Assembly: GCA_011176635.1 (NCBI GenBank)
Contig: DUEC01000001.1
Span: 1 to 43,040 of the forward strand
Reading direction: 5' to 3'
DNA length: 43,040 nt
DNA from: Dehalococcoidia bacterium
Lineage (GTDB): Bacteria > Chloroflexota > Dehalococcoidia > Dehalococcoidales > BS750m-G39
A model generated the notes under the pieces. That model ran no database searches, was not told where the DNA came from, and saw only the letters and a program-made list of their open reading frames with translations. Of the stretch, positions 5,630 through 30,021 are shown one piece after another. Every line of letters starts with the position of its first letter. Within the stretch, counting starts at the first letter, position 1. Position numbers and translations under genes: made by a program.

Positions 5630-6083
5630 GCCAGCCAAGCCGAAGGTAAAAGCGATACTGGACAGCTACCAGGGCGACCCGTCTATGCTGGTGTCCATCC
5701 TGCAGGATGTCCAGGCGGAGTACAACTACCTGCCCAAGGAAACCCTGACGCAGGTCAGCCAGGACTTAGATATACCGCTGACCCGTGTTTATAGCGTGGC
5801 CACCTTTTTCAAGGCTTTCAGCCTGAAACCGAGGGGGCGGCATATAATCAATGTCTGCCTGGGTACCGCCTGCCATGTCAGGGGAGCGGTTAGAATCCGC
5901 GACGAGATAGAGCGAGAGCTTGACATAAAACCAGGAGAGACAACCGAAGACTTTAAATTCACCCTGGAGACGGTCAACTGCGTCGGCGCCTGTGCCTTGG
6001 GGCCCATAGTCATCATTGACAGTAAGTATTCGGGGCAGATGAAGCCCGATAAAGTGAAAACCTTGCTGGAGAGTTACGACTAA
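5613..6083 (+). CDS. NuoE/HydC-like [2Fe-2S] subunit
   Basis: VATFF, CLGTACHVRG and CVGACALGP; overlaps porB by 17 nt. Confidence 0.92.
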   Translation: MPTKSKPAKPKVKAILDSYQGDPSMLVSILQDVQAEYNYLPKETLTQVSQDLDIPLTRVYSVATFFKAFSLKPRGRHIINVCLGTACHVRGAVRIRDEIERELDIKPGETTEDFKFTLETVNCVGACALGPIVIIDSKYSGQMKPDKVKTLLESYD

Positions 6084-7952: not shown

Positions 7953-7964
7953 AAGCGGAGAGAA

Positions 7965-14974: not shown

Positions 14975-15598
14975 TTGGAATTATCTTATCTATCACTATC
15001 AATGTTGGCCGCTTTCGGTCTGGGTGCCTGCCCCTTCTCGGTGTGGATTGGGCGCTGGTTCTTAGGTAAAGACATAAGAGACTACGGGGACGGCAATCCC
15101 GGGGCAGCCAATGTCTTCCGCGCCGGAAGCAGCAAGCTGGGCCTCCTGGCAGTGATTTTAGATGTAGCCAAGGGGTTTCCCTTCGTCTTCCTGGCACACG
15201 CCTTTTTTGAGCTTCCCGATGCCGCCGTTCTGCTCGTAGCCATGAGTGCCATACTGGGCCATGCTTTCTCCCCACTGCTTCAGCTAAGAGGGGGAAAGGC
15301 GATAGCCGTTACCTTCGGCGCCCTCCTAGCCCTGCCCCAGCACGAGATAGTGGTTGTCTTTGCCGCTCTTACCCTGCTCGGTTTCCTCTTTATAGAAGTC
15401 AATGCCTGGGCGGTGATACTGGGCGCTGTTGGCTCGCTGGCTTTTATACTGGTCATCAGGGGAGGCTCCTGGGAGGCGCTGTTCCTGCTGGGCTTACTGG
15501 TGCTGATGGTGGTAAAACACTTTGAAGAGCTAAAGACAGCCCCCAGGATTAAGGTGAAAATCCGCGCCTGGCTGCAATCAAGGGGACGGGAACCCTAA
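14975..15598 (+). CDS. plsY: Glycerol-3-phosphate acyltransferase PlsY family
   Basis: DIRDYGDGNPGAANV, LDVAKG, GHAFS and GGKAIA. Confidence 0.85.
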   Translation: MELSYLSLSMLAAFGLGACPFSVWIGRWFLGKDIRDYGDGNPGAANVFRAGSSKLGLLAVILDVAKGFPFVFLAHAFFELPDAAVLLVAMSAILGHAFSPLLQLRGGKAIAVTFGALLALPQHEIVVVFAALTLLGFLFIEVNAWAVILGAVGSLAFILVIRGGSWEALFLLGLLVLMVVKHFEELKTAPRIKVKIRAWLQSRGREP

Positions 15599-15619
15599 GA
15601 CGAGGTTTCCCCCAACTAT

Positions 15620-15768
15620 CTAGACAATATCAAGCTTTTTGGGAAACGGAGGCAGCTTCTTCACGATATCCAGCGGCCATACCGCCCTGAGCCTCTTTTC
15701 AGTCCAGGCCTTTATCGAGATAACGTCAATGGGCAGACCCGCGGGCAAATTAGCGTGCACTTCGAAGG
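15620..15768 (-). pseudogene. Possible degraded [4Fe-4S] ferredoxin-type gene fragment
   Basis: Two frames joined by a one-base shift read PSKCTLICPRVC / PIDVISIKAWTEKRLRAVWPLDIVKKLPPFPKKLDIV*. Confidence 0.3.
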
Positions 15769-15852
15769 CGCCGTGGGAAGCACACCCTCATTACGGAACC
15801 ACTCGACTTGATATAGGCTGAAATCCTGTTGAGAAAAACGGTTTCCCCTTTC

Positions 15853-15882
15853 TTGACATGTGAGGGGGGAGTGTTGTAGATT
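15853..15882 (+). promoter_or_regulatory. Candidate promoter for the first flavoprotein operon
   Basis: TTGACA-N18-TAGATT, about 210 nt upstream of the ATG at 16100. Confidence 0.45.
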
Positions 15883-16099
15883 TTTTAAGGCGGGCCGAAA
15901 AATTTCACTAACTTTTGAACGCGATCTTGGTTGGACAAGCGCCGCTTGAAAGTGATCTGGGGGAAGAAAGTCAGCTGGAATACTTGAGAGATTGTATGGT
16001 AAAGGCGCATGTGGTGTTTTGGTATATGTCAGAGACGGAAGTCTAGTGAAGATCTAAGACGACCTGGACCAAATCTTATTACAATGGGAGGGAACTGAG

Positions 16100-18091
16100 A
16101 TGACTGAATCCAAGTATACTCAGTCTACAGAATGGCCGTACCCGGTAAATTACGGCAAGGAGAATGAAGATGTTGCCGATGTCCTGATCCTTGGTGGTGG
16201 CATAGCTGGATGCCACGCGGCTATAACTGCCGCTAAACGGGGAGCAAAGGTCATTGTCGTTGACAAGGGAGCGGTGATAAGAAGCGGTCTTGGTGGTACC
16301 GGAGTTGACCACTGGCACCTTGCCTGCACCAACCCGTGCTCTAAGATTACTCCGGAAGAGATGGTGGGGCTACTTAAGAAATTTGGCGATTATTTCTACC
16401 TTGAATTTGGCAACGGGATTACCTGTTACATCACCTGCAAAGAAAGCTACGATGCCCTTCTTGATTGCGAGAAGACGGGGGTGAAGGTTAGAGATGTGGA
16501 TGACGAATTTGCCGGAGCCTCCTTTAGAGATGAAAAGACCAAATTAATGTTTGCCTATGATTACGAGAATAAGTATTGTATACGCGTTAATGGGGGGGCG
16601 AACATCAAGGTCGCCCTGTACAATGAGCTTAAACGTCTCGGTGCGAAAATCTACGACCATGTTATGGCGACCAGCCTGCTCACCGAAGGGGGCAAACAAG
16701 GAGCCAGGGTTGTCGGTGCAACCGGGGTAAACGCAAGAACCGGCGAATTCTATATCTTCAAGGCAAAGTCTACCCTGCTCTCTATGGGCGCACCCGCTGG
16801 GCTCTGGATATTCTCCACAGAATTGGCAGGTGCTACCCTATTCCAGGAGCCCAACCTCACCGGTGAAGGCACGGCTATGGCGTGGCAGGCTGGAGCAGAG
16901 TTAACCATGCTGGAGAGAAGCTCGGCGATGATAGCTTCCGGTGGTTTCAGCTATCCAATGTATGGCACCGGTAATGCTCATAACACCTGGTATGCTTGCA
17001 CCATAGTCGATGCCGATGGCAAGGAAGTCCCCTGGGTTGACCGGGACGGGAAAATACTGAAAACAGTATCAGAGCGATACCGCCCGGCACCCGGGCAGAA
17101 AACCTTTGTCTACGGTCGCATGTCTCCCTCCTATGAGCTCTGGGGACCAACTATTATCCCCGACCTGCCCGAACGCATTATGAAGGGTGAGTTCAAACTA
17201 CCGCTTTATGCCGACTTGCCCGGTATGCCTGAGCACGAGCGGAGAGCGATATGGGGCCTCATGGTAGGCAATGAAGGCAGGACACGCATCCCAATATACG
17301 ATAGGTACACAAAGGCCGGGTTTGACCCTGACAAGGATATGCTTCAGGCAAATATTATGCCTCCCGAACAATACGGCTTTGGCGCCTGGTGGGGGGCATA
17401 TGGGCCGCGCCAGTGGCGAACGGGAGGATTTGCTGCTGGCGGTGGGCTGGCGTTTGACTGGGACCTCAAGACCAGTCTTGAGGGTTTATACGTGGCGGGA
17501 ATGACAACATACGCTGGTGGAGACCACTCTGTAGCCGCCTGCTCCGGCAGATATGCGGCTAGAAAGGCGGTCAAGTATGCGCAAACAGCCCAGGAGCCCG
17601 TCATTGAAAGGAAGCAGGTGGACAAGGAGAAGGCTCGTGTCTACGCCCCCGTAACGCAAAAGGACGGAGTGGGGTGGAAAGAATTGCGGGCCGGGCTGTG
17701 CCGAATTATGCAGGACTATTGCGGCGAGTATAAGAGTGAGGAAACTCTGAAAACGGGGCTGGGATGGTTCAACAGCATTAGAGAGAGTGAAGCGGCCACA
17801 GCTTACGCCAGGAATCCGCATGAGTTAGAGCGTACCCTGGAATGCCTGACACACATTACCGTGGGAGAAATTATAATGCATGCTTCTTTAGCCCGGAAGG
17901 CGAGCAGCCTGCCCCTGGAATTCAAGAGGCTGGATTATCCCGAAATGGATCCACCGGAGTGGAACAAGTTTGTCACCATCAGGCTGGAGAACGGGGATGT
18001 CAAGGTGGGAGAGCTGCCTTTCAACTACTGGCTCCTGCCACCTAATGCTCCCAAGTATGAAGAGAATTACCAGAAGCATTGTGACCTATAA
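16100..18091 (+). CDS. AprA-like FAD-dependent oxidoreductase (SdhA/FrdA/AprA superfamily), function unknown, copy 1
   Basis: DVLILGGGIAG dinucleotide fold, RSG.G..G.DHW, TSLEGLYVAG and C-terminal helical domain ASLARKAS...RLDYP. Confidence 0.8.
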   Translation: MTESKYTQSTEWPYPVNYGKENEDVADVLILGGGIAGCHAAITAAKRGAKVIVVDKGAVIRSGLGGTGVDHWHLACTNPCSKITPEEMVGLLKKFGDYFYLEFGNGITCYITCKESYDALLDCEKTGVKVRDVDDEFAGASFRDEKTKLMFAYDYENKYCIRVNGGANIKVALYNELKRLGAKIYDHVMATSLLTEGGKQGARVVGATGVNARTGEFYIFKAKSTLLSMGAPAGLWIFSTELAGATLFQEPNLTGEGTAMAWQAGAELTMLERSSAMIASGGFSYPMYGTGNAHNTWYACTIVDADGKEVPWVDRDGKILKTVSERYRPAPGQKTFVYGRMSPSYELWGPTIIPDLPERIMKGEFKLPLYADLPGMPEHERRAIWGLMVGNEGRTRIPIYDRYTKAGFDPDKDMLQANIMPPEQYGFGAWWGAYGPRQWRTGGFAAGGGLAFDWDLKTSLEGLYVAGMTTYAGGDHSVAACSGRYAARKAVKYAQTAQEPVIERKQVDKEKARVYAPVTQKDGVGWKELRAGLCRIMQDYCGEYKSEETLKTGLGWFNSIRESEAATAYARNPHELERTLECLTHITVGEIIMHASLARKASSLPLEFKRLDYPEMDPPEWNKFVTIRLENGDVKVGELPFNYWLLPPNAPKYEENYQKHCDL

Positions 18092-18138
18092 AAATTTAAT
18101 GGGGCGGTGACTATCACACTAAAAGGGAGTAAGTGATT

Positions 18139-18477
18139 ATGTATAACAAAGCCTATATGGTACCCAACCCGATGACACCAAACCAGGCAATATTTATTAG
18201 TCCCGAGTTCTGCAACGGCTGCAACACCTGTGTGGACGTGTGCCGGTCGGACGTACTGGTACCCAACCCAGAGAAAGGCAAGCCACCCATAGTAATGTAT
18301 CCCGATGAATGCTGGTTTGGTGGCTGTTGTGTTGCCCACTGCCCCGTGCCGGGAGCCATTAGAATGGAGCATCCCTTAAATCAACGAGCCGGCTGGAAGC
18401 GCAAGGAGACCGGTGAATACTTCCGCGTTGGAATGAAAAATCCACCACCTCCTAATACCAGGCCGCCGGTTGGCTGA
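18139..18477 (+). CDS. AprB-like dicluster ferredoxin, copy 1
   Basis: CNGCNTCVDVC and YPDECWFGGCCVAHCP; directly follows the flavoprotein. Alternative GTG start at 18133. Confidence 0.85.
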   Translation: MYNKAYMVPNPMTPNQAIFISPEFCNGCNTCVDVCRSDVLVPNPEKGKPPIVMYPDECWFGGCCVAHCPVPGAIRMEHPLNQRAGWKRKETGEYFRVGMKNPPPPNTRPPVG

Positions 18478-18483
18478 CAGCCT

Positions 18484-18525
18484 AAGGAACTAGACAATGA
18501 TGAGCATGTAAAAAGGGCCTATCTA
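18484..18525 (+). pseudogene. Remnant of a LivF-type ABC ATPase C-terminus
   Basis: Translates as KELDNDEHVKRAYL, resembling the LivF terminal EL..N..VK.AYLG motif; only 14 codons. Confidence 0.45.
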
Positions 18526-18568
18526 TATGGTAAGAACGAATCCAAATGAAAGTGGCAGAACCTGACTT

Positions 18569-18684
18569 ATGATTGGTGGTGGCCAGATTGACGATGAAGT
18601 CAGGAAATATGCATATGCCGATGCCTACGGTAAAGACGCCATGGTGGCAGTGTCACTAGAAAAGGATGGGTAGAAGCCAATTGA
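18569..18684 (+). pseudogene. 3' remnant of a corrinoid (B12-binding) methyltransferase protein gene
   Basis: MIGGGQIDDEVRKYAYADAYGKDAMVAVSL, then a one-base shift to KGWVEAN*. This is the MIGG...GADAY..DA..AV C-terminus of MtaC/MtbC-type proteins; the DxHxxG part is absent. Confidence 0.8.
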
Positions 18685-20012
18685 CAGTAGAGAAGAAATG
18701 GGCTGAGTTATCTCCCGAGGAAAAGCGGGAAGAGCGATTCAAGAGATGGCTTTCGCCTGATGTTAAGTTCTCCAGCCCAGAAGCCGAGAAAGCCTACAAG
18801 GCAAGATTAACGAGGATAATCGAAGCTATTCGGCTGAGGGAACCTGACCGGGTACCGGTTAATCTGCCGTCGGGATATTTCCCGACTTATTATGCTGGGA
18901 TAACGCTCCGGACGGCCATGTATGATTATGATGAACTCTGCCAGGCGTGGCTGAAGTTTATGCAGGATTTTGATATGGATACGTTTGGAGGTCCCGGTCT
19001 TGTCTTTCCAGGTAGGGTAAGTGAGCTTCTTGATACGAGAATATCGAAATGGCCGGGCCACGGTCTTCCTGCTGATGTAAGATTTCATCAGTTTGTTGAA
19101 GGCGAATATATGAAGGCGGACGAATACGATGTCTTCCTGAATGACCCGTCGGATTTTTGCCTTAGATTCTATCTGCCCCGCACATTAGGAGCTCTGGAGC
19201 CTTTCCATAGGCTTTCTCCCTTCACACATGCATTGGGGATGCCGACCAATTTTTTAGCATCGTGCACAATGCCGGATGTTCAGGCGGCGTTTCAATCTAT
19301 TGTAGATGCTGGTAGAGAACTGGGGAAATGGTGGGAGGCTGTTGAGGACTGTAGCCAGAAGGTGATGTCAGAGGGATTCCCGTCTTTCTGGGGTGGCATG
19401 GCCATGGCGCCCTTTGATACCTTCGCCGATACATTAAGAGGAACTCGGGGGATAGTCATGGATATGTACCGGCAGCCGGATAAGTTACTAGAAGCCATGG
19501 AAAAAGTAACACCCCTGAATATTGAGGGGGCAGTGTCGGCTGCCAACGCCTCCGGAGGTCCAGTAATATTTATGCCGTTGCATAAAGGTGATGATTCTTT
19601 TATGTCCAACAAGCAGTACGAGACCTTCTACTGGCCCACCTTGGAAAAGGTTATTTTAGGCTTGGTTGATGAGGGCCTCGTGCCGCTGTTATTCGCTGAG
19701 GGAAGCTATAATAGGCGTTTGGAGATTATTAAAGATTTGCCCAGGGGCGTGGTGGTGTGGCATTTTGACCAGACGGATATGGCCAGAGCCAAAGAAGTCC
19801 TTGGTGACTCCGCCTGTATCGCCGGGAATGTACCTGCCTCGCTGATATGCACGGGTACGCCCCAGGCTGTTAAAGAATACTGCCGTCAGCTTATCGAGGT
19901 TTGTGGTAAGGGTGGCGGTTATATCTTAACCGGCGGGGCAGCTGTTGATAAGTGCAATCCCGATAATCTGCGTGCCATGATGACAGCCGCCAAAGAATAT
20001 GGCACCTACTAG
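18681..20012 (+). CDS. UroD/MtaA (methylcobamide methyltransferase) superfamily protein
   Basis: EPDRVPV, APFD...LRG, DMYRQP, FYWPTL, CIAGNVP and GGGYIL..G. TTG at 18681 overlaps the stop of the corrinoid remnant; the ORF track starts at 18666. Confidence 0.85.
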   Translation: MTVEKKWAELSPEEKREERFKRWLSPDVKFSSPEAEKAYKARLTRIIEAIRLREPDRVPVNLPSGYFPTYYAGITLRTAMYDYDELCQAWLKFMQDFDMDTFGGPGLVFPGRVSELLDTRISKWPGHGLPADVRFHQFVEGEYMKADEYDVFLNDPSDFCLRFYLPRTLGALEPFHRLSPFTHALGMPTNFLASCTMPDVQAAFQSIVDAGRELGKWWEAVEDCSQKVMSEGFPSFWGGMAMAPFDTFADTLRGTRGIVMDMYRQPDKLLEAMEKVTPLNIEGAVSAANASGGPVIFMPLHKGDDSFMSNKQYETFYWPTLEKVILGLVDEGLVPLLFAEGSYNRRLEIIKDLPRGVVVWHFDQTDMARAKEVLGDSACIAGNVPASLICTGTPQAVKEYCRQLIEVCGKGGGYILTGGAAVDKCNPDNLRAMMTAAKEYGTY

Positions 20013-20158
20013 ATAGAGGGAGGCCGTCTTCTGGCATAGTAAGCTCAAGGGTTTCACTTACCTCGTGTGGGCCAACCTCCATCCTTGTGGCGGTTCTTTC
20101 TTAGGTGAGCCCTCTCTATCTTCATATCTTTGTCACGCATCGCTTCCTGTTTGGAGTA

Positions 20159-20186
20159 TTGACAAGCATAATATGGAGAGTATAAT
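20159..20186 (+). promoter_or_regulatory. Consensus sigma70 promoter of the ABC transporter operon
   Basis: TTGACA-N16-TATAAT, followed by an inverted repeat TAGAA-N9-TTCTA at 20196-20214. Confidence 0.75.
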
Positions 20187-20249
20187 TGCAGTTACTAGAA
20201 CGGAATAATTTCTAAACTAAAAAGTCTCGCTGAAGAAAGGAGGCAAACA

Positions 20250-20273
20250 ATGATTCAGGTAGGGGTGAAATAG
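20250..20273 (+). CDS. Candidate leader peptide MIQVGVK
   Basis: AAAGGAGG RBS 6 nt upstream of an ATG; 7 codons then TAG, within the 5' leader of the binding-protein gene. Confidence 0.35.
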   Translation: MIQVGVK

Positions 20274-20309
20274 TTTCTGGAGAATTCACAAAGGAGGCAT
20301 GTTTTAACA

Positions 20310-21908
20310 ATGAATAAGTTACTTGTTTGTTTGTTAGTGTTAGCCCTGATAGCAGTGCCCTTATTTGCTGCCTGTGATGAAGATGGTGTAACAACCACAC
20401 CGCCGACCACACCGCCGACCACACCAGCCGAAGAAGAACCGGTATACGGTGGTGTCATGAGAGTCGTTGGGGGTACCTTTCCATCGGTTGTAGGATATCC
20501 ACCGGAATTCAGCCCCACTGACAGCATATACGCCCTGCCCTGCATAGAAAGACTATGCGAATGGGATGAAGATGGGGTTCAAATCCCAGTGTTAGCTACA
20601 GCCTGGGTAGTAGACCAGGATAACCTGACCATCACTTGGTACCTGAGGGAAGGCGTTACCTTTCATGATGGGACACCCTGGAATGCCGAGGCATGCCGGT
20701 GGAACTTCCAGCTACAATTGGACGGGGGCAGGTTACCTTATGGTCAATACGTAGAGTCCCTTGAAGTTGTTGATGAGTACATTTTCAGGATGCATCTTAC
20801 GGACTACACCTGGTACATGATCGAACAATATGGGTGGGTCATGATGATTTCGCCGACAGCATTTGAAAATGCCGGCGACACTCTTGAAGAGCGTATAGAT
20901 TGGGCTCGCTCAAACTCAGTAGGGACAGGTCCCTTCCAACTTGTTGATTTTCAGCGAGATGTCATCCTCGTATACGAGGGGAATGATGACTACTGGCGGG
21001 AAGGCATGCCATATCTCGATGGTATCGAAGCCAGTTTCATTCCAGACCCCGTGACAGCCGCAGCCAAGATGGAGGCGGGAGAGGCAGATATGTGGATATA
21101 CGCGCAATCCGTACAAAGCATTCTTGACTTAGAGGAAATGGGGCTTACGGTAAACCGGGGGACTGGCCTGTCTGGTATGTTCTGGTCGCTCTTGCCTAAT
21201 TCCAGCGACCCCGACTCACCACTTGCCATTCAGGAGGTACGCGAGGCAATAGAGTATGCCATTGACCGCCCGGCCATAGCCGAGATGCTGGGATTCGGCG
21301 AGTATGAACCTCTTCATCAGATAGCTTCCCAAGATTGGCCGGGTTATGTTGAGGGTTATGACCCCCGACCGTATGATCCGGCGATGGCCGAACAGTTGCT
21401 GGCTGATGCGGGTTACGCCGGTGGCTTCGAGATCTCGATAATGGCCACGGATGCAGCACGTGATGCTGTCTCCGCTTTACAGGCTTATCTGGGTGATGTA
21501 GGCATTGATGTTGAACCGGATATCGCCGACTTTGGCAGATACTTTACTGCTCTCTTTTTCACAGGCTGGGATGACCTAGTATTAGCTGCGTCTGGAATCA
21601 ACCCCGATGCCACTGACTTATTCGTCCATTTTGGCCCCACCCCGATGACCTTCATGACTGGTAACATCTATAAGTCACCCGAATACCTAGCTCTATGCGA
21701 TGAGGCGCTGGATCCCCAGTATGCAGATGCCTTTGAGGCAATGGATACGATAAGGGATGCAGTAATGCAGGCCGGTGAGGATGCTATGATTATCCCACTT
21801 TGGAGAGACCTCAGCGTGGCGGTGATGCAGTCCTATGTTCACAGCGATTATTTCATGATACACGGCGTCATCTGGACCCCGTATGACACTTGGATGGAAC
21901 CACATTAA
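20310..21908 (+). CDS. ABC transporter substrate-binding lipoprotein, family 5 (OppA/DppA-like)
   Basis: Lipobox LFAAC, T/P linker, LREGVTFHDGTP, GTGPF and VREAIEYAIDR. Confidence 0.93.
   Translation: MNKLLVCLLVLALIAVPLFAACDEDGVTTTPPTTPPTTPAEEEPVYGGVMRVVGGTFPSVVGYPPEFSPTDSIYALPCIERLCEWDEDGVQIPVLATAWVVDQDNLTITWYLREGVTFHDGTPWNAEACRWNFQLQLDGGRLPYGQYVESLEVVDEYIFRMHLTDYTWYMIEQYGWVMMISPTAFENAGDTLEERIDWARSNSVGTGPFQLVDFQRDVILVYEGNDDYWREGMPYLDGIEASFIPDPVTAAAKMEAGEADMWIYAQSVQSILDLEEMGLTVNRGTGLSGMFWSLLPNSSDPDSPLAIQEVREAIEYAIDRPAIAEMLGFGEYEPLHQIASQDWPGYVEGYDPRPYDPAMAEQLLADAGYAGGFEISIMATDAARDAVSALQAYLGDVGIDVEPDIADFGRYFTALFFTGWDDLVLAASGINPDATDLFVHFGPTPMTFMTGNIYKSPEYLALCDEALDPQYADAFEAMDTIRDAVMQAGEDAMIIPLWRDLSVAVMQSYVHSDYFMIHGVIWTPYDTWMEPH
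20394..20425 (+). repeat. 12-bp tandem repeat (ACCACACCGCCG x2.7) encoding a TTPP linker
   Basis: Directly visible at 20394, 20406 and partially at 20418. Confidence 0.85.
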
Positions 21909-21925
21909 GCAGTCTGAATAAGAAA

Positions 21926-21978
21926 GCCGGGTGATTCATTCTCATCCCTGGAATGGGGCCGGGGGTGAATCACCCGGC
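21926..21978 (+). other. Strong intercistronic stem-loop after the binding-protein gene
   Basis: Perfect 13-bp inverted repeat GCCGGGTGATTCA/TGAATCACCCGGC, extendable by G-U pairs; no adjacent U-tract. Confidence 0.8.
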
Positions 21979-22107
21979 GCAAAGAAGAAAGTAGTAATTC
22001 TTTTTAGTAGCTAGCCTGCGGATTACTTAGACAAATCTTTGAGGTCTGGGCTGAGTACCGGTTTGTGCCTGACCAAGAAGATTTCTTAATGCCGACCGGG
22101 ATTTAAT

Positions 22108-23067
22108 ATGACAACATATATTGTCCGGCGACTGATACAGGCATTGGTCGTTCTTATCCTAGTGACCCTGATTGTTTTCTTTGTCATGCGACTACTGCCT
22201 GGCGACCCAATACTGATTTACGTGGCCCAGACTGCGGAATTAGAAGCTATGCCTCAGGAAAGGATTGATGAACTCCGGGCCGAGTTTGGTCTGGATAAGC
22301 CGATAATGGTGCAATACGCCAATTGGATGGCGGGCATTTTCCGGGGGGATTTCGGCACCTCAATATTCTACCGCGAGGATGTGGGCACGCTCATGCTTGA
22401 GCGTTTCCCCATAACCATTCACCTGACCTTGCTCTCCTTGATAGTTGGTGCCATTTTCGGCGTCCTGGCGGGGATGCTCACGGCTGTGAGGCGGGGCAAA
22501 TGGTTGGATAAAATAGTCACACCTCTGACATATGTCGGTCTAACCATCCCTGTGTTCTTGTTGGGGATATTGCTGATATACGCTTTTGGCGTCAAGCTCG
22601 GCTGGCTGCCCATATCGGGCTACACCTCGCCACTGGATGATTTCTGGTTGAGCACCAGGCAGGTGATTATGCCCGTCTTTTGTCTGGCTATTTTTGGTGT
22701 GGCGGCTAACGCGCGCCAGATGCGGTCAAGCATGCTTGAGGTTACCCGGCAGGACTATATTCGCACCGCCTGGTCCAAGGGCTTAGGAGAGCGCGCGGTA
22801 GTAATGAGGCATATGCTGAAAAACAGCCTCATCCCGGTTATTACCCTGATGGGTGTTAGTGTCAGCATCATCCTTGGCGGTTCGGTGCTCGTTGAGAGGG
22901 TGTTTGCCATTCCCGGTGTCGGCAGTTTGTTGGTCAGCAGCATTTTTGGCCAGGACTACGTAGTGGTACAGGCCATTACTTTGATCTTTGCCGTCATAAT
23001 CTTATTGGTCAATTTGATTGTTGATATATCTTATGCTTGGCTTGACCCCAGGATACGGTATGGCTAG
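22108..23067 (+). CDS. Peptide/nickel ABC transporter permease (OppB/DppB-like)
   Basis: LPGDP, FGLDKP, GDFGTS and RSSMLEV..QDYIRTA.SKG. Confidence 0.93.
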   Translation: MTTYIVRRLIQALVVLILVTLIVFFVMRLLPGDPILIYVAQTAELEAMPQERIDELRAEFGLDKPIMVQYANWMAGIFRGDFGTSIFYREDVGTLMLERFPITIHLTLLSLIVGAIFGVLAGMLTAVRRGKWLDKIVTPLTYVGLTIPVFLLGILLIYAFGVKLGWLPISGYTSPLDDFWLSTRQVIMPVFCLAIFGVAANARQMRSSMLEVTRQDYIRTAWSKGLGERAVVMRHMLKNSLIPVITLMGVSVSIILGGSVLVERVFAIPGVGSLLVSSIFGQDYVVVQAITLIFAVIILLVNLIVDISYAWLDPRIRYG

Positions 23068-23079
23068 CGAGCGTAGAAT

Positions 23080-23994
23080 ATGGTAGAAAAACATACCAGC
23101 GACATAGGTTTCTCAGAAGCTCCAGTCCGCGCCAGCGAGTGGCGGCGCTTTCGGCGGGTATTCTTTGAGCGCAAGCTGGTTACCTTCGGGCTGGTGGTAT
23201 TAGTGTTGATGGTGATTGCCGCCGCCTTTGCCCCGTTGCTGACACCCTACGACCCCTATGAGCTAGGAGACGCGGGTGAGTCGTTGCTTCAACCGGGCGG
23301 GGAGCACCTCCTGGGCACTGACCTTCTAGGTAGAGATACGCTAAGCCGGCTCATCTACGGCGCAAGGACGGCGCTGATGGTCGGCTTTATATCGGTTTTT
23401 ATTTCTGGCTTCATTGGTGTTCCGCTGGGGATAATTGCCGGATACTTTGGCGGCGTTATTAATATGGTCATCATGAGGGCTATGGACGCAATTATGTGCT
23501 TCCCGATGCTTTTACTGGCCCTTTTACTTGCCGCCGTGCTAAGAGAATACGATGTTATTAGTGGCATCTGGGTCGTTATCATCGCCCTGAGCATCGCCAT
23601 AATACCTGGATACGCTAGGGTAACACACGGAGTGACCTTGAGCATCAAGGAAAATGAATATATTATGGCCCAACGGGCTATGGGCTCCAGCAATATGCGC
23701 GTGATGTTTAGACATATCCTACCCAATGCCTTTCCGCCGCTGATAGTGCTGGTGACGATGCAGCTGGGGGCTTTAATCCTGGCCGAAGCCGGACTCAGCT
23801 TCTTGGGCATCGGCATTGACCCACCGGGCGCGGCCTGGGGAGCAATGGTTTGGGATGGCTATAGATATTTAGCCAACAATACGGCGCTTTGGCTGTCGCC
23901 TGGTATTGCCATTGCGCTGGTGGTATTTGCCTTCAATATGGTGGGGGACGGCTTAAGGGATGCCCTCGATCCCAGGCTCAGAGGCTTACTCTAG
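23080..23994 (+). CDS. Peptide/nickel ABC transporter permease (OppC/DppC-like)
   Basis: HLLGTDLLGRD, RHILPN, EAGLSFLG and GDGLRDALDPR. Confidence 0.93.
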   Translation: MVEKHTSDIGFSEAPVRASEWRRFRRVFFERKLVTFGLVVLVLMVIAAAFAPLLTPYDPYELGDAGESLLQPGGEHLLGTDLLGRDTLSRLIYGARTALMVGFISVFISGFIGVPLGIIAGYFGGVINMVIMRAMDAIMCFPMLLLALLLAAVLREYDVISGIWVVIIALSIAIIPGYARVTHGVTLSIKENEYIMAQRAMGSSNMRVMFRHILPNAFPPLIVLVTMQLGALILAEAGLSFLGIGIDPPGAAWGAMVWDGYRYLANNTALWLSPGIAIALVVFAFNMVGDGLRDALDPRLRGLL

Positions 23995-24010
23995 TGATAA
24001 GGAAAAGAGC

Positions 24011-25015
24011 ATGGCGGAGTTATTGAAAGTAGAAAACCTGAAGACTCAGTTCCACACCGAGGGCGGTGTGGTCAAGGCGGTGGATGGCATTTCCTACCAC
24101 ATCGACGAGCGAGAAATAATTGGCCTGGTGGGGGAGAGTGGTTGTGGTAAATCAGTCAGCCAGCTTTCGGTGATGCAGTTAATATCCACGCCGGGTGAAA
24201 TTGTCGGCGGTGAGGTTATCTTCGAGGGACAGGACCTACTCAAGTATAAGACTCACGGACCGGAAATGCGTTCTGTTCGCGGTGCTAAGATAGCCATGAT
24301 ATTTCAGGAACCAATGACCTCGCTCAACCCGGTATTGACCATTAATCAGCAGTTAACGGAAATGCTAGAGCTACACCTGGGGATGAGCAAGAAGGTGGCT
24401 AGGGAAAGGGCAATCGAGCTACTCGGAATGGTGGGTATCCCCAGTGCCCATAACCGCATTGATGATTATCCCCATCAGTTCAGCGGCGGCATGCGGCAGA
24501 GGGTGATGATTGCTATGGCGCTTTCCTGCAGTCCAAAGATACTCATCGCCGATGAACCAACAACAGCTCTGGATGTGACCACCCAGGCACAGTTATTAGA
24601 GCTGATGAAGGATATGGTCGAGCGATTTAAAGCCTCGTTGGTTATCGTGACCCACAACCTAGGCGTTGTGGCCCGGTATGCACAGAGGATATATATTATG
24701 TATGCCGGGCGCATCGTGGAGGAAGGCACGATTAAGGATATATTCGGTAAGCCGCGCCATCCGTATACTATAGGATTGCTTAAATGCATACCCAGGCTGG
24801 ATGAGGAGGAGGGGAGGAAACTGGTCCCTATTGAGGGCCTACCGCCTAATCTGATTAACATGCCACCCACCTGTGCCTTTCTACCCAGGTGCTCTTACAA
24901 GGTCGAAAGGTGTTTTCAAGAGCCCTGGCCTCCACTCAAACGTCTGCATGACCGACACTACATCAGCTGCTATGCTAATACCGAGGAGAAGACAGGTGAA
25001 CCCACTGAAAGATGA
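24011..25015 (+). CDS. Peptide ABC transporter ATPase (OppD/DppD-like)
   Basis: [26 protein letters not shown] and HPYT. Confidence 0.94.
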
Positions 25016-25985
25016 GGCTATTTTAGACGTCAGAGACCTGAAAATGTACTTCCCGGTTACCAGGGGCCTCCTGCGGAGAAAGGTGGCTGATGTCAAAGCT
25101 GTTGACGGTGTCACCTTTAAGATCAGGAGGGGTGAAACGTTAGGATTGGTAGGGGAGAGCGGCTGCGGCAAAACCACCATTGGCCGCTGTGTTCTCAGGT
25201 TATATCAGCCCACCAGCGGCAGTATTTTCTTTGAAGGAGAAGAGCTCTCCTCTTTATCGGAGTCAAAGATGAGGCGAATCCGCTGCAACATGGCGCTCAT
25301 TTTTCAAGACCCCTATAGCTCGCTAGACCCCCGCCAGAGCGCGGGCAGTATCGTTGGCGAACCGTTAAAGGTTCACAACTGGGTTGGCAGTCAGTCTGAA
25401 TATAACGATAGAGTGGAGCAGCTGTTTCGCCTGGTTGGGCTGGACTCCAGCATGACTGACCGCTTCCCCCATGAGTTCAGCGGTGGCCAAAGACAACGCA
25501 TTGGTGTCGCCCGCGCCCTGGCTTGTGAACCCTCTCTGATAGTCTGCGACGAGCCCATTTCCGCTTTGGATGTTTCCATACAAGCCCAGATAATCAACCT
25601 GCTAGAGGAGTTGCAGGCAGGAATAAAGGGGCTGACCTATCTCTTCATCGCCCACGACCTTTCGGTGGTCAAGCACATAAGCGATCGGGTGGCGGTGATG
25701 TATCTTGGCCACATAGTGGAAATTACCAAATCAAGAACGCTGTACGAGAACCCCTTGCATCCGTACACCAAGTCGCTGCTTTCCGCAGTGCCCATAGCTG
25801 ACCCCTTTGTGGAGGAAAAGCGTGAGCGTATTATCCTTAAGGGAGAGGTGCCCACCCCGTTGAACCCACCGTCCGGCTGTAGTTTTCACCCCCGCTGCTT
25901 CATGGCCACACCAGAGTGCAGCCAAGCGGTACCACCACTGCGCGATGTCGGTGCTGGTCACCAGGTAGCCTGTATCAGGGTTTAA
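24996..25985 (+). CDS. Peptide ABC transporter ATPase (OppF/DppF-like)
   Basis: [23 protein letters not shown] and GCSFHPRC; GTG at 24996 with GAGGAG RBS. Confidence 0.94.
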
Positions 25986-26060
25986 CGAACATTTAATAAG
26001 TAGCCAACCAGTTATTGGCTGAGGCTAATGAACTGAATTTTTAATAAGGAGGACACACAA

Positions 26061-28016
26061 ATGAGTACATGGCATGATTATTTTAAGGAACAAGGTCACG
26101 CACCAGATTGGCCGTATCCTATCCGCTTCGACCAGGAGCAAGAAATCGACGCCGATGTCCTGGTGATTGGTGGTGGTATCGCCGGTTGCTGGGCAGCCAT
26201 CAGTGCCGCCAGGCAGGGACTGAACGTTGTCCTTGCCGAAAAAGGAGATACCGTCAGGAGTGGCGCCGGAGGCCCTGGCTGCGACCACTGGTGTGATGTT
26301 CCGGCAAACCCCCTATCCAACGTGGACCCGGATGAATGGGCACGGCACATGGCCGAGCGGCCATACTGCAACGGTATTGGCCTCCAGATACAGTGCCGTG
26401 AGAACTATGACACCCTGCTCGAACTGGAACAGATGGGAGGCAAAGTCAGGGACAGCGGTGATGAATACGTGGGCGCTCAGGGCCGGGATGAGAAGACCAA
26501 GTTCATGATTTCCCCGCGCTATACGAAAGTCCACAGTTATGTCCCGGTGGATGAAAAAACAGAGGGAAAAATCTTTGCCAGTAATCCGGAAGGAAAACTG
26601 AACAACGTGGTAATACGGGTCTGGGGGTCCACTTTTAAACCCGTATTAAAAAAGGAGTGTCAGCGCTTAGGGGTTAAAATCTTTGACCGCGTGATGATGA
26701 CCAGCCTGCTGACCGAGAACGGAGCCCAGGGCGCCCGGGTGGTCGGGGCCACCGGCCTCAACAGCCGCACCGGTGAATTCATGATTTTCAAATCCAAATC
26801 GACCATCCTGGCCACCTCCGGAGCCGGGTCGATATGGCTGATAAGCACCGAATTAGGCGGCTATTGCAACATGATGTCCCGAACCATTGCCGGCGACGGC
26901 ACCGCCATGGCCTGGAAAGCCGGGGCTGAACTGACCACGATGGAAAGCACCGGAATCGTGCGCATTGCTGTCGGCTATAAGCATAAGTGGTATACCGGGG
27001 CAGGTGACGCCAGTTATGAGAATGTTCCTATCGTAGATGCCAACGGTAAAAGAGTGCCTTTCCCGATACAGGGCTGGGTCGACGCAGGGTATATGGTCCC
27101 CAGCCCCGAAGTTGAGCAAGCCGTCCGGGAAGGGATACTCAAGGGCGAATACGCGCTGCCGTTCTACGGTGATTTTCCGGCCATGCCTGAGGTAGAGAGA
27201 AACGCTACCTGGAAGCTGATGCTGGGAGAAGAATCTACCACCAAAGTTATTACCAAAACCTTCAACGATGCCGGCTATGACCCCAGCCGGGACTTACTCC
27301 AGAGTTACCGGTATATTGAGGGTAACAGTTTAGCGCAATGGCGGGAGGCCAGTTACGGTGGTGGCATATTAGTCGACTGGGACTTGAAGACCTCTCTTGA
27401 GGGGCTGTATGCCGCCGGGACGCAGATGTTTTCCCCCGAGGACCATAGCTATGCGGCGGCTACCGGCAGGTATGCCGGCCGAAAAGCGGCCGCCTATGCC
27501 CGGCAGGTCGGTGAGCCCCAGATATCACGTGAACAGGCCGTCCTTGAGAAAGCCCGGGTTTATGCCCCGGTTAAGCGCAGCAGCGGCATGGAGTGGAAAG
27601 AGCTTCATGCCGGTATTGCCAGAGCCATGCAATATTACTGCAGTGAGTTTAAAACCGAGAGTCTTCTGAATATGGGTCTGGGCACCCTGCGAAAAATCGA
27701 AGAGGAATCAGTGCCTTTACTATTTGCTCTGGACCCACATAAGCTGATGCGCAGTCTGGAAGACCTCAGTCTTTTAACTTACGCTCAAATCGTTACCCAC
27801 GCTTCTCTGGCGCGCAAGGCCAGTAGCATCCCCCTTAATTTCCAGAGGATAGACTACCCGGCTCTGGACCCACCGGAGTGGAGGAAGTATCTTACGCTTA
27901 AGCTGGAAAACGGCAAGGTCAAAGCCGGCGAATTGCCGCTGGCCTTTTGGGGTGACATGAAAAATCAGTATGAAGCCCGTAATAAAGACTATACTGGCGT
28001 ATATAAGGGAAAATGA
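26061..28016 (+). CDS. AprA-like FAD-dependent oxidoreductase, function unknown, copy 2
   Basis: Paralog of 16100-18091: WPYP, DVLVIGGGIAG, RSGAGGPGCDHW, DWDLKTSLEGLY and HASLARKAS; AAGGAGG RBS. Confidence 0.8.
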   Translation: MSTWHDYFKEQGHAPDWPYPIRFDQEQEIDADVLVIGGGIAGCWAAISAARQGLNVVLAEKGDTVRSGAGGPGCDHWCDVPANPLSNVDPDEWARHMAERPYCNGIGLQIQCRENYDTLLELEQMGGKVRDSGDEYVGAQGRDEKTKFMISPRYTKVHSYVPVDEKTEGKIFASNPEGKLNNVVIRVWGSTFKPVLKKECQRLGVKIFDRVMMTSLLTENGAQGARVVGATGLNSRTGEFMIFKSKSTILATSGAGSIWLISTELGGYCNMMSRTIAGDGTAMAWKAGAELTTMESTGIVRIAVGYKHKWYTGAGDASYENVPIVDANGKRVPFPIQGWVDAGYMVPSPEVEQAVREGILKGEYALPFYGDFPAMPEVERNATWKLMLGEESTTKVITKTFNDAGYDPSRDLLQSYRYIEGNSLAQWREASYGGGILVDWDLKTSLEGLYAAGTQMFSPEDHSYAAATGRYAGRKAAAYARQVGEPQISREQAVLEKARVYAPVKRSSGMEWKELHAGIARAMQYYCSEFKTESLLNMGLGTLRKIEEESVPLLFALDPHKLMRSLEDLSLLTYAQIVTHASLARKASSIPLNFQRIDYPALDPPEWRKYLTLKLENGKVKAGELPLAFWGDMKNQYEARNKDYTGVYKGK

Positions 28017-28071
28017 TAGTTTCAAAATCGAAACTATGCCTTTTAAGTAAGTCGGATTTTTGGAGGAAAAG

Positions 28072-28368
28072 ATGTCTAGTCAAAAATTAAGCGCCATACC
28101 TAATGTGGTTACACCGAATGCCCCGGTGATTTTTAATCCTGATATCTGCAACGGGTGCAACATCTGTGTAGAGGTCTGCCAGATAGACGTATTCATACCC
28201 AATCCAGAGAAAGGCAAACCACCTATCATATTGCATCCCGATGAATGCTGGTATGGCGGCTGCTGTGTTAATGATTGTCCCCGACCCGGGGCTATCACCT
28301 TCAACTGGCCGCTTCAACAGCGAGGGTACTGGAAGAACAAAGCCACCGGGGAAATCCATCAAATCTAG
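28072..28368 (+). CDS. AprB-like dicluster ferredoxin, copy 2
   Basis: CNGCNICVEVC, PNPEKGKPPI and HPDECWYGGCCVNDCP; GGAGG RBS. Confidence 0.85.
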   Translation: MSSQKLSAIPNVVTPNAPVIFNPDICNGCNICVEVCQIDVFIPNPEKGKPPIILHPDECWYGGCCVNDCPRPGAITFNWPLQQRGYWKNKATGEIHQI

Positions 28369-28753
28369 CCGCCTAGAATTCGGATGTATCGCCAGCGGGA
28401 AGGACGATAACCGGTATTAGAAACCCATATTCCCGGTTTGGCATGAAGAACTCGGGGCTAGATGGTAAGCCAGCATATCCATTATTGAACAATCTGAGTG
28501 ATTGTTGCAACAAACCGCACATTCAGGACAACGTCATCCCGGCAAACAGACAGGTAGTGGCTTAACCTGCTTACCATTAACACTATTTCAAGCTGTAACC
28601 TTTTACAGGTTAAGAGCAAGTCTTACAACCAGTGCTAGTATTTACTTAGTGGTCCGACTTGGGGAAGGCGCACCACAACGGTAATGGTATTACCACCGAT
28701 TGGCTAACTCTTATACTGAATGAGGCATCGATATTACGCATAATTTGACTCCG

Positions 28754-29092
28754 CTACATGCCATTGTGCCATGGGGGTTCTGGCTTATTGTATCGGTATC
28801 TACTGTAATCCTTCAAGAAGAAACGTGAAAAATTGTCTTTTATAGCTTGTTCCAAACGGTCAGCAATTCTTGGGCATGCTGTTTCAAAAAACGTCTTTTC
28901 GACCGGTTGAATGTTACTCCTTTCCTAGTTCTCCATGTCTTTCATAAAGCTGCTAAACACAAGATAATTCTGTAACAAAGCCCTTGCTGAATCTCGGCCT
29001 AGCTTTTGTTTTTCAACCTTTCTGATTCGTTTGAGTGCCTCAACAACACTTTGACCCACGTTGGTGGAGGGGAGCACATTCTCGAGGTACGG
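28754..29092 (-). pseudogene. Remnants of two adjacent AT-rich cargo genes
   Basis: An open frame YLENVLPSTNVGQSVVEALKRIRKVEKQKLGRDSARALLQNYLVFSSFMKDMEN* ends at 28925. It is followed by an AAAGGAG RBS and an ATT-initiated frame QPVEKTFFETACPRIADRLEQAIKDNFSRFFLK... at 28912-28754. Confidence 0.4.
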
Positions 29093-29178
29093 TAGCCTTG
29101 GATCAGGTTATCAAGGCGGGTGGCCCGGCTCTTAAATTCAACTATCTGGTTAACTTCTTCTTGAATATTGGCTGTCAT
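29089..29178 (-). mobile_element. Truncated N-terminus of a probable tRNA-targeting tyrosine integrase
   Basis: GGAGG RBS plus MTANIQEEVNQIVEFKSRATRLDNLIQGYR, about 100 nt downstream of the tRNA-Arg 3' end. It resembles the L..LI.GY start of integrase N-terminal domains as I recall them; no catalytic domain remains. Confidence 0.5.
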
Positions 29179-29280
29179 TTTAATCCTCCGTTTTTGCCGA
29201 AGCAGCGGGTCTTTTAACAAAAAATCCCGGGATTTTGCCCAGGACCCGGAGGTTAAGACAGCCTCAATTTATAGCTGGAG

Positions 29281-29357
29281 TGGAGTCCCTGGTGGGATTC
29301 GAACCCACGACCCGCTGCTTAGAAGGCAGCCGCTCTGTCCAACTGAGCTACAGGGAC
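29281..29357 (-). tRNA. tRNA-Arg(TCT)
   Basis: Acceptor GTCCCTG/CAGGGAC, anticodon arm GCTGC-CTTCTAA-GCAGC, A20, T loop TTCGAAT, discriminator U, encoded CCA. Confidence 0.96.
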
Positions 29358-29409
29358 AAGCTTATCATTCAAATTTAGCACGGGGCGCCGGGCAAGGTCA
29401 AGACAGCCT

Positions 29410-29877
29410 TTATTCAAGCCTGAAGACAGTCCAGCCGAGAACAGTGGCGCAGGTCACCACTATTCCGGCAATAATTACCCCGATAACAATAGATAGCATA
29501 GCATGCTTGAACCTCAAGCCGAGGAGAACCGCCGCCAGCGCCCCCGTCCAGGCACCGGTGAAGGGTAGGGGAACAGCCACAAACAGGGCCAGCCCGATGC
29601 GCTCATACCTCTCGATGACTCTGCCCCGCCTCCTGGTGCGTTCAAAAAGCCACTCCAAAAACCGCTTTAAAAAACCCACCCTGCTTAAAAAACGGGTAAT
29701 GGCATCAAGGAAGAGCAGGATAAAGGGTACCGGCAGCAGATTGCCGATGACAGCCAGCAGCAGGGCGTAATGCCAGGGGAAGTCATACTGAATGATAGCC
29801 ACCGGTATGGCGGCGCGAAGTTCCGCTATCGGAGAAGCGGCAATGCCCAGTACTACCAGTATATTATAAATATCCAA
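29410..29877 (-). CDS. Small multidrug export-like membrane protein (COG2426)
   Basis: P.AELRAAIP, GNLLPVPFI and FVAVPLPFTGAWTG; AGGAG RBS with TTG start. Confidence 0.88.
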   Translation of the reverse strand: MDIYNILVVLGIAASPIAELRAAIPVAIIQYDFPWHYALLLAVIGNLLPVPFILLFLDAITRFLSRVGFLKRFLEWLFERTRRRGRVIERYERIGLALFVAVPLPFTGAWTGALAAVLLGLRFKHAMLSIVIGVIIAGIVVTCATVLGWTVFRLE

Positions 29878-30021
29878 ACCGAGAAGCTCCTAAAAAAGTA
29901 GCTCTATACTAGAAACCATATTTACATAATGTAACCTATAGACAATGCCAGCGTCAAGCCAGATTGCTAGTTTTTGGCTACTTCTTCGAGCCCTCGTTGG
30001 GCATAGCCAAGCTGTGTCTTG

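Follow-up and report, generated by a model that had tools for sequence, protein, structure and literature searches.

Several well-studied flavoenzymes belong to one superfamily built around flavin adenine dinucleotide (FAD), among them the alpha subunit of adenylylsulfate (APS) reductase (AprA), the flavoproteins of succinate dehydrogenase and fumarate reductase (Sdh/Frd) and L-aspartate oxidase (NadB). The active-site residues of AprA are an Asn in a SAIN segment, an Arg in an RFKDGYGPVG loop and a His in a GSH motif. In the Sdh/Frd and NadB group the RSH motif marks the covalent-FAD His, and HPTG, RGEGG, HYxMGG and HGANRLG are the substrate motifs. Here we describe a locus of ten genes at positions 16100–28368 of a 43,040-nucleotide stretch of DNA (the window; contig DUEC01000001.1, GenBank assembly GCA_011176635.1) from an uncultured Dehalococcoidales bacterium, in which two flavoprotein-ferredoxin gene pairs, A1-B1 and A2-B2, bracket a methyltransferase gene and an ATP-binding cassette (ABC) importer. 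As judged from their sequences, A1 and A2 are neither APS reductases nor Sdh/Frd flavoproteins but members of a distinct soluble FAD/Fe-S family.

Among described enzymes, the 3'-phosphoadenylylsulfate (PAPS) reductase of Methanothermococcus thermolithotrophicus (MtPAPSR; structure 8a8o; PMC10322725) resembles these pairs in combining an FAD-containing alpha subunit with a beta subunit of two [4Fe-4S] clusters and no membrane partner. The family differs from it in sharing only 21–24% identity, in a capping domain (~273–436) that could be aligned at the sequence level with neither PAPS reductase nor AprA, and in lacking the AprA-type motifs; moreover, no sulfate-activation genes lie near the locus or were found, by searching for PF01747, in the 83%-complete genome. 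AprAB itself (A. fulgidus 1jnr/2fja; D. gigas 3gyx) is like the family in domain order, in a Gly that replaces the covalent-FAD His, in the Cys-Trp motif of the beta subunit and as its sister clade in our tree. The family is unlike AprAB in scoring 87–95 bits against a cut-off of 642, in a DHW insertion that replaces GL-SAIN, in having neither RFKDGYGPVG nor GSH, in its shorter B subunits, and in a window that holds none of sat, qmo and dsr (of the three, only sat was sought across the genome). With Sdh/Frd and L-aspartate oxidase the family shares the superfamily fold (Z 35–40), but it lacks the covalent-FAD His, the four substrate motifs, an SdhB-type Fe-S subunit and a membrane anchor. The 'AprAB-like' complex of Clostridia is, according to PMC8477390, likewise a group of AprAB paralogs outside bona fide AprAB, with an AprB-like subunit that has no long C-terminal tail. 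It is described there with sulfate-assimilation and sulfur-trafficking genes, whereas the present family sits amid importers, methyltransferases, regulators and redox enzymes, and on this comparison of descriptions the two are probably different.

For the methyltransferase gene the described counterparts are CdmBCA and the O-demethylase systems. According to PMC13222342, CdmB is a zinc-free chloromethane:corrinoid methyltransferase, and within the UroD superfamily it falls together with the O-demethylases MtvB, OdmB, VdmB and MtoB. The locus is like these systems in its substrate:corrinoid methyltransferase (MTI), which matches CdmB at E 2.5e-45, and in a genome that encodes corrinoid proteins, a second methyltransferase (MTII) and a RACo-type activase. 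It is unlike them in that the cognate corrinoid gene is here reduced to 33 codons. AprAB-like flavoproteins are not reported with the described MTI systems, and a search of two methoxydotrophy papers found no mention of them.

A flavoprotein family outside the AprA clade

A1 (16100–18091, on the + strand like all ten genes) encodes a 663-residue flavoprotein that matches FAD_binding_2 (1.2e-19) and Succ_DH_flav_C, and A2 (26061–28016) a 651-residue flavoprotein of the same family (FAD_binding_2, 8.3e-21); the two are 45% identical (BLASTP). Neither reaches the cut-off of any NCBIfam model for a named relative. A1 and A2 score 86.9 and 94.6 bits on aprA (TIGR02061; cut-off 641.75), 95.8 and 92.0 on sdhA_frdA (TIGR01812; 567.3), 43 and 46.9 on nadB (TIGR00551; 452.75) and 131 and 117.8 on the AprAB-like PAPS reductase model (NF005331; 557). 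The best NCBIfam model, NF006131, gave 197 and 192 bits against a cut-off of 587. True AprA proteins from two genomes that we number G001 and G002 (G, C, L and X denote our numbered genomes, contigs, loci and sequencing runs) score 834–876 bits on the aprA model.

An initial annotation, made from the sequence of the window, had placed both proteins outside bona fide AprA and proposed a phylogeny with AprA, SdhA/FrdA and NadB as a check. In the resulting tree of 72 rows (quick search, LG+G4; the AprA, SdhA/FrdA and NadB rows were drawn from family-bearing genomes) the 54 family rows form a single clade (SH-aLRT 100, stem 1.03), sister (89) to a clade of three true AprA (100). A branch of 1.19 with a support of 100 parts Sdh/Frd and NadB from the family, AprA and a further clade of four uncharacterised neighbour flavoproteins that branches below AprA plus the family. 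Since the tool warned of long branches meeting and the tree contains no PAPS reductase sequence, the sister relation is provisional; the exclusion of the A1/A2 family from the AprA clade is not. The placement outside AprA therefore stands, as does the description of the family as soluble flavin/Fe-S proteins, which is supported by the Pfam domains and by the absence of transmembrane-like windows from A1, B1, A2, B2 and the MTI.

A1, A2 and a third paralog, A3, encoded on contig C6 of the same 1.1 Mb genome (G000), fall in three deep subclades. Genome G002 has both a true AprA and a family member. The family is large, with at least 3563 protein matches among 8000 candidates scored and more than 513 places in species-representative genomes. 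Public records name its members as Sdh/Frd flavoprotein, generic FAD-dependent oxidoreductase or 'adenylylsulfate reductase', and the ESM Atlas offers generic names only. In the literature, supplements aside, we found no account of the family or of its linkage to UroD-type genes; what was matched instead were bona fide AprAB, the sulfur-assimilation AprAB-like group and unrelated 'AprA' proteins.

Two side observations concern these relatives. The members of the further clade (L023:6003–7844, L039:1932–3587, L059:870–2597 and L047:16173–18122; ~24% identity to A1) each have a small ferredoxin of their own and adjoin family members in Actinomycetota and Dehalococcoidaceae. The A3-B3 pair (L006, contig C6, 5947–8989) is followed by a gene for a 209-residue protein with only a pyruvate-kinase C-terminal domain, which is not recurrent among the 78 loci surveyed below; methylenetetrahydrofolate reductase (MTHFR) with a small partner, a formate-dehydrogenase-like gene and an aldehyde:ferredoxin oxidoreductase (AOR) are encoded near the pair.

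Fold and active-site motifs

By sequence, the best relatives of known structure are PAPS reductase 8a8o (E 3e-28) and A. fulgidus AprA (2e-19). An AlphaFold2 model made with 55 family sequences (pLDDT 92.1) matched 8a8o with Z 44.2 over 510 aligned residues (root-mean-square deviation 3.7, 24% identity), Sdh/Frd chains with Z of about 39 (within a range of 35–40 that includes L-aspartate oxidase 1knp at 38.5) and AprA 1jnr with Z 37.0.

Across the 55 sequences G63 and W72 are invariant, and S62, G65, G66, G68, D70, H71, R440, G448, G449, H476 and R484 are at least 90% conserved. The motif RSGxGGxGxDHW, which the initial annotation had picked out in A1 and A2 as RSG.G..G.DHW, is thus a true signature of the family, as its positions 62, 63, 65, 66, 68 and 70–72 all fall in these two groups. 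The second segment singled out there, QWR...GGG, holds in part: R440, G448 and G449 are conserved at this level, but the other positions fall below it and the C6 paralog reads YLR. Of these residues, His476 is the sole one common to the whole superfamily in the motif alignment, which comprised nine family members, three AprA, three SdhA/FrdA and two NadB.

In the same alignment Gly63 stands at the position of the covalent-FAD His of Sdh/Frd, and a four-residue insertion reading D-H-W is found where AprA has GL-SAIN. Its position relative to AprA and Frd suggests that the insertion lies in the loop that faces the flavin in these relatives. The SAIN, RFKDGYGPVG and GSH segments are present in all three AprA rows and absent from all nine family rows. 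The AprA loop RFIPxRFKDGYGPVGAWF has no counterpart in the nine family members, and none of them contains the Sdh/Frd/NadB segments QFHPTG, RGEGG, HYxMGG or HGANRLG. The loss of both motif sets from A1 and A2, noted at first inspection, is confirmed. With the catalytic motifs of AprA and Sdh/Frd missing and a family-specific capping domain, the predicted active site of the family is a new one. The capping domain also holds the large differences between A1, A2 and A3, and it is mainly there that A1 and A2 diverge, in agreement with the earlier remark that the two paralogs of the window diverge around their predicted substrate-binding segments.

Small ferredoxin subunits

B1 (18139–18477, ~112 residues) and B2 (28072–28368) each encode a small AprB-like ferredoxin subunit with a 4Fe-4S dicluster domain for two [4Fe-4S] clusters. 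The B1 reading frame opens at GTG 18133, with a likely start at ATG 18139 preceded by GGGAG, and that of B2 at TTG 28060, with a likely start at ATG 28072 preceded by GGAGG. Family B subunits measure ~100–125 residues, and B1 and B2 score 24 and 20 bits on the aprB model, whose cut-off is 135.65. Most carry CxxCxxCxxxC plus CW(F/Y)CGxCVxxCP; in B1 and B2 the second cluster motif is CW(F/Y)GGCCVxxCP, with Gly for the usual second Cys and a Cys-Cys pair after it. The two genes share a 166-nt stretch that is 77% identical. In the PAPS reductase a Trp has been proposed to take part in electron transfer (PMC10322725). By our reading of the motif, the Cys-Trp pair of the B subunits would occupy the position of this residue.

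A B gene stands directly 3' of 75 of the 88 family flavoprotein genes with room for one. Of the 13 exceptions, eleven are of A1 type and two of A2 type, and one of the latter is split. The family has the alpha-beta layout of a 2x[4Fe-4S] beta subunit with an alpha subunit of AprA/Frd fold, and gene order together with the likeness to AprAB suggests that A and B bind as heterodimers.

The methyltransferase gene and its corrinoid remnant

Between the flavoprotein pairs, 18666–20012 encodes an intact 448-residue protein of the UroD superfamily, with a URO-D match (1.1e-23) over residues 243–445 only. Its sole relative of known structure is CdmB of Acetobacterium dehalogenans (9rui; E 2.5e-45, 158 bits), to which it is significantly similar over three stretches, the best being 199–448. 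On the MtaA/CmuA and HemE models it scored 51.9 against a cut-off of 244 (NF004889), 42.4 against 235.4 (TIGR01463) and 24.9 against 302.95 (hemE). The gene had first been labelled 'UroD/MtaA': the superfamily is right, but with 52 bits against 244 it is not MtaA, and its similarity instead makes it a putative methyl transferase of the substrate:corrinoid MTI class of CdmB and the O-demethylases. In a tree of MTI proteins it falls in a clade of ten with a support of 99, nine members of which are linked to flavoproteins.

Directly before this gene, 18566–18664 holds what is left of a gene for an MtaC-type corrinoid protein, its final 33 codons; the rest has been deleted. Of the 33 residues, 26 are identical to residues 172–204 of the 210-residue corrinoid protein on contig C20 (tblastn, E 5e-16), so that what was initially called a corrinoid remnant does match the C-terminal region of an intact protein. 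Both intact corrinoid genes of the genome (C20 and C51) stand directly upstream of a URO-D gene paralog, and the ancestral order here was therefore corrinoid protein, then methyltransferase. Together, the remnant and the C20 and C51 gene order bear out the suggestion that the locus was originally coupled to a corrinoid protein. In the nearest named relative, an uncultured Dehalococcoidales metagenome-assembled genome (MAG; L007, A1 identity 91%), the remnant is eroded by a further 124 nt.

The genome contains five URO-D-type MTI genes, two intact 210-residue corrinoid proteins, a RACo-type activase beside a Pterin_bind MTII on contig C12, and genes for MTHFR and formate dehydrogenase. With these corrinoid proteins, activase and MTII the MTI of the window can work in trans. 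Its ratio of non-synonymous to synonymous substitution rates (dN/dS) against L007 is 0.17, close to those of A1 (0.13) and A2 (0.11), a sign of purifying selection and an argument for its continued use.

MTI genes are far more numerous in some genomes of the survey below. The 2.3 Mb Chloroflexi genome of L010 (G012) has 18 UroD-type MTI matches, and its contig C13 (11209–21885) carries about eight of these copies in a tandem array, with a gene for a corrinoid protein at its end. For methyl harvesting this is a very large repertoire. In the Acidobacteriota genomes the corrinoid protein is encoded elsewhere, flanked by more MTI genes (three of four genomes).

The importer and the setting of the locus

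The five genes between the MTI gene and A2 encode an importer of the Opp/Dpp/Nik type: an SBP_bac_5 substrate-binding protein (SBP) at 20310–21908 (2.1e-67), two BPD_transp_1 permeases, OppB/NikB-like at 22108–23067 and OppC/NikC-like at 23080–23994, and two ABC_tran ATPases with an oligo_HPY tail, OppD-like at 23960–25015 and OppF-like at 24996–25985. The reading frame of the last opens at 24873, with GTG 24996 as its likely start. All NCBIfam equivalog models for the importer scored below their cut-offs. At its N-terminus the SBP has a hydrophobic signal and a Cys, after which comes a Thr/Pro-rich linker, as expected for a lipoprotein. Its dN/dS against L007 is 0.46, well above the 0.09–0.40 of neighbouring genes, which suggests shifting ligand specificity or relaxed constraint. 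Orthologs of this SBP (53–65% identity) adjoin A genes in L073, L037 and a Desulfobacteraceae MAG, L062.

Pfam and NCBIfam annotation agrees with the gene order and the shared + strand first described for the ten genes. The scan of 30 other open reading frames of the window turned up no sat, qmo, dsr or membrane-anchor family, as had also been stated, and the only Rfam match in 15000–30000 was a tRNA, with no riboswitch. Two promoter-like sites precede genes of the locus, a weak one upstream of A1 (15853–15882, + strand; TTGACA-18-TAGATT, 10/12) and a perfect sigma-70 consensus before the importer genes (20159–20186, + strand; TTGACA-16-TATAAT, 12/12); the promoter scan found 16 such sites in the region against 14.3 expected by chance, which weakens both. 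The flanks are housekeeping genes, PlsY upstream and tRNA-Arg and Dxs downstream. A genomic island was considered and rejected, as neither a repeat of the neighbouring tRNA-Arg nor an att-like repeat brackets the cluster. About 8 kb upstream, 3480–8684 encodes on one strand a 2-oxoacid:ferredoxin oxidoreductase alpha/beta pair followed by NuoE-like, NuoF-like and 2Fe-2S/4Fe-4S proteins, possibly a ferredoxin/NADH-linked redox module. Runs from marine sediment contain DNA nearly identical to the locus, and those from salt marsh contain related DNA.

Recurrence of the parts across genomes

We surveyed the gene neighbourhoods of the best 80 of the more than 513 relatives in species-representative genomes, which lie in 78 loci; an MTI was called at 250 bits or above. 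The loci come from Dehalococcoidales and other Chloroflexota, Acidobacteriota, Desulfobacterota-like genomes, and Gaiellales and other Actinomycetota MAGs. An MTI gene occurs in 14 loci, an Opp-type SBP with permease in 17, either in 27 and both in 4; two or more family flavoproteins are present in 16, and a corrinoid protein in one. By type, A1 occurs in 59 loci (MTI in 7, importer in 11), A3 in 21 (9 and 7) and A2 in 11 (8 and 4). It can be seen that A2 is the type most often beside an MTI gene, and all 11 A2-type loci also carry an A1 or A3 gene.

Individual loci repeat the parts of the window in other orders. L009 and L010 have a contiguous A3B3-MTI-A1B1-A2B2, and L037 has A1B1-ABC-MTI. 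Six Acidobacteriota loci read A3-B3-MFS-MTI and five continue with A2-B2; in L074 the A2-B2 pair precedes A3, and in L080 no such pair is seen. Four of the six have an IclR gene upstream of A3. With 4–18 MTI matches in genomes of 1.7–4.6 Mb, there are too few for such tight adjacency by chance. The recurring linkage to UroD-type genes and Opp-type importers on which the initial annotation had staked its proposal is thus seen across genomes and phyla.

Other recurrent neighbours are Amidohydro_2 (13 loci), AOR, molybdopterin enzymes and short-chain dehydrogenases/reductases (SDR; 11 each), IclR (8), MFS (7) and Peripla_BP_6 (5). Five extra loci in two good genomes carry MFS, EamA, MarR, Opp-type ABC, molybdenum enzymes, AOR and a zinc-dependent alcohol dehydrogenase. 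With NCBIfam the Amidohydro_2 neighbours received no specific name, and the MFS, IclR, SDR and molybdenum-enzyme neighbours received generic ones only; the molybdenum enzymes resemble FdhA and may simply be part of the Wood-Ljungdahl pathway.

Proposed function

We favour, with a confidence slightly above even, the view that the region holds three recurrent modules acting on one class of imported organic substrate. The Opp/Dpp-type importer would bring the substrate in, and the MTI would strip a methyl group from it. As its own corrinoid gene has decayed, the MTI would depend on the corrinoid proteins, the activase and the MTII that other parts of the genome encode, and the methyl group would pass to tetrahydrofolate and the Wood-Ljungdahl pathway. 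A1B1 and A2B2 would be heterodimers. Their alpha subunit, located in the cytoplasm, would bind FAD non-covalently, and their beta subunit (B), which has two [4Fe-4S] clusters, would connect the flavin to ferredoxin or another soluble carrier of low potential. The enzymes would act as reductases, electron sinks fed by ferredoxin, in which B relays electrons to the flavin in the manner of AprAB. The flavin would reduce the imported organic acid, its demethylated product or another group of the same compound, with the Asp-His pair of the DHW insertion as a proton relay, and A2-type enzymes would work in sequence with an A1- or A3-type enzyme. From its context the substrate is probably an organic acid, often methylated, rather than sulfate, and possibly a methoxylated or hydroxylated aromatic acid. 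The aromatic acid is a lead suggested by the O-demethylase kinship of the MTI, by IclR, MarR, MFS and Amidohydro_2 neighbours and by sediment, salt-marsh and peat habitats. A sulfur-containing compound had also been named as an example, and no result of the analysis points to one.

Several observations weigh against this account. Catalytic direction and substrate are both read from context, and the SBP is distant from solved binding proteins (~100 bits). In the DNA covered, an MTI is missing from 64 of the 78 loci, and in 51 an Opp-type importer is missing as well; the six Acidobacteriota loci are closely related and represent a single lineage; and the Amidohydro_2, AOR, molybdenum enzyme and SDR neighbours belong to generic families. 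Among 201 Dehalococcoidia genomes the flavoprotein (E at or below 1e-100) was found in four and the MTI (E at or below 1e-60) in nine, with both only in the present genome; the other three flavoprotein genomes are 90–97% complete. In salt-marsh contigs ~95% identical to A1-B1 (runs X5 and X8, at depths of ~17–19 and 94, from two studies that share year and habitat and may be one campaign), position 18489 is joined to 18669 and 18775 to 20051. The remnant (179 nt skipped) and 1275 nt of the MTI gene are lost, with 17 other letters at the joint, and the contigs keep A1-B1 and run on into the SBP gene. Within the genome itself, contig C20 (40321–49597, minus strand) encodes corrinoid protein-MTI-MTI-SBP_bac_5-permease-permease-ATPase-ATPase, which repeats the [remnant]-MTI-ABC layout of the window without a flavoprotein; it seems that the methyltransferase systems of this organism are supplied by Opp-type importers. 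Together with the perfect promoter consensus in the 298-nt gap before the SBP gene, the C20 layout raises the possibility that rearrangement has brought two or three transcription units together in the window.

The coupling of the flavoproteins to the MTI is therefore facultative. Given the C20 operon, the class sample and the salt-marsh loss of the MTI, the original description of the ten genes as one system is not supported in the sense of an obligate one. The parts occur in any pairwise combination, which fits modules for one substrate class and not an obligate pathway.

A more far-reaching proposal, which we make tentatively and regard as doubtful in its full form, is that the family comprises new ferredoxin-driven flavin reductases with an Asp-His-Trp active site. 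They would serve as electron sinks, terminal or fermentative, that act on imported organic acids such as lignin- or humic-derived aromatics, with O-demethylation as a plug-in first step and A3 or A1 plus A2 carrying out successive reductions. The hosts, at the same tentative level, would be non-dehalogenating Dehalococcoidia, Acidobacteriota, Desulfobacterota and Actinomycetota of sediments, peat and groundwater.

Electrons might run the other way, from substrate to flavin. The superfamily works in both directions, with L-aspartate oxidase and succinate dehydrogenase as its oxidising members, and L-aspartate oxidase 1knp is a fold match (Z 38.5). The importer is of a type whose nearest named relatives bind nickel-chelates, opines, glutathione and peptides, so that the AB pairs could be dehydrogenases or oxidases acting on an imported amino-acid-, opine- or peptide-like compound and passing electrons through B to ferredoxin or another acceptor. 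We think this unlikely. The NadB and Sdh substrate-binding motifs are absent, and two low-potential [4Fe-4S] clusters with no quinone or membrane partner suit the delivery of electrons to the flavin, as in AprAB. A host with the Wood-Ljungdahl pathway and ferredoxin-reducing enzymes, moreover, needs sinks as much as sources.

The modular pattern also raises the question of whether the genes share a pathway at all. A1B1, a decaying methyl-harvesting operon of corrinoid protein, MTI and ABC genes, and A2B2 could have come together by chance, through rearrangement, and act on unrelated substrates. Such an origin would account for the truncated corrinoid gene at the junction of A1B1 and the MTI, the flavoprotein-free C20 layout, the MTI deletion in a close relative, the lack of genome-level co-occurrence in the class sample beyond this genome and the perfect promoter consensus before the SBP gene. 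It seems to us rather improbable, given that these parts reappear together, at operon-like spacing, in other phyla and in other arrangements (L009/L010, L037, the Acidobacteriota and L027), that an MTI stands beside 8 of 11 A2-type loci, that flavoprotein-linked MTIs cluster in one clade, that SBP orthologs adjoin A genes in a different phylum, and that 4–18 MTI matches per genome of 1.7–4.6 Mb make chance adjacency unlikely.

Assimilation of sulfur by divergent APS or PAPS reductases, like the M. thermolithotrophicus enzyme and the Clostridia 'AprAB-like' group, would explain why 8a8o is the best match in both sequence and fold and why the family is the sister clade of AprA with the same alpha-beta layout, but it is very hard to reconcile with an identity of 21–24%, the absent AprA motifs, the failure to find ATP sulfurylase (PF01747) in this 83%-complete genome, the lack of any sulfur-assimilation family among the annotated window neighbours or recurrent clusters, three paralogs in 1.1 Mb and the coexistence of a true AprA with a family member in G002. 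That the AB pairs reactivate oxidised corrinoid proteins, as an alternative to the ATP-dependent RACo activase, is suggested by their recurrent adjacency to MTI genes and by a flavoprotein fragment beside a corrinoid protein-MTI pair in L122, and is nonetheless highly improbable, with a corrinoid protein in only 1 of 78 loci, a RACo activase in the genome, most family loci and genomes free of MTI, and a 650-residue enzyme whose large variable capping domain suggests a small-molecule substrate.

Significance

The family spans several phyla of uncultured anaerobes, and labelling its members as Sdh/Frd or 'adenylylsulfate reductase' would mislead metabolic reconstructions of sulfur and carbon cycling. 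Its active site points to new chemistry within a well-studied flavoenzyme superfamily. Since three paralogs are kept in a genome of 1.1 Mb, their function is probably central to the life of this organism, and the identity of the substrate would reveal what such Dehalococcoidales live on. If the family does consist of ferredoxin-driven reductases with an Asp-His-Trp active site, it would represent an undescribed route of anaerobic carbon turnover.

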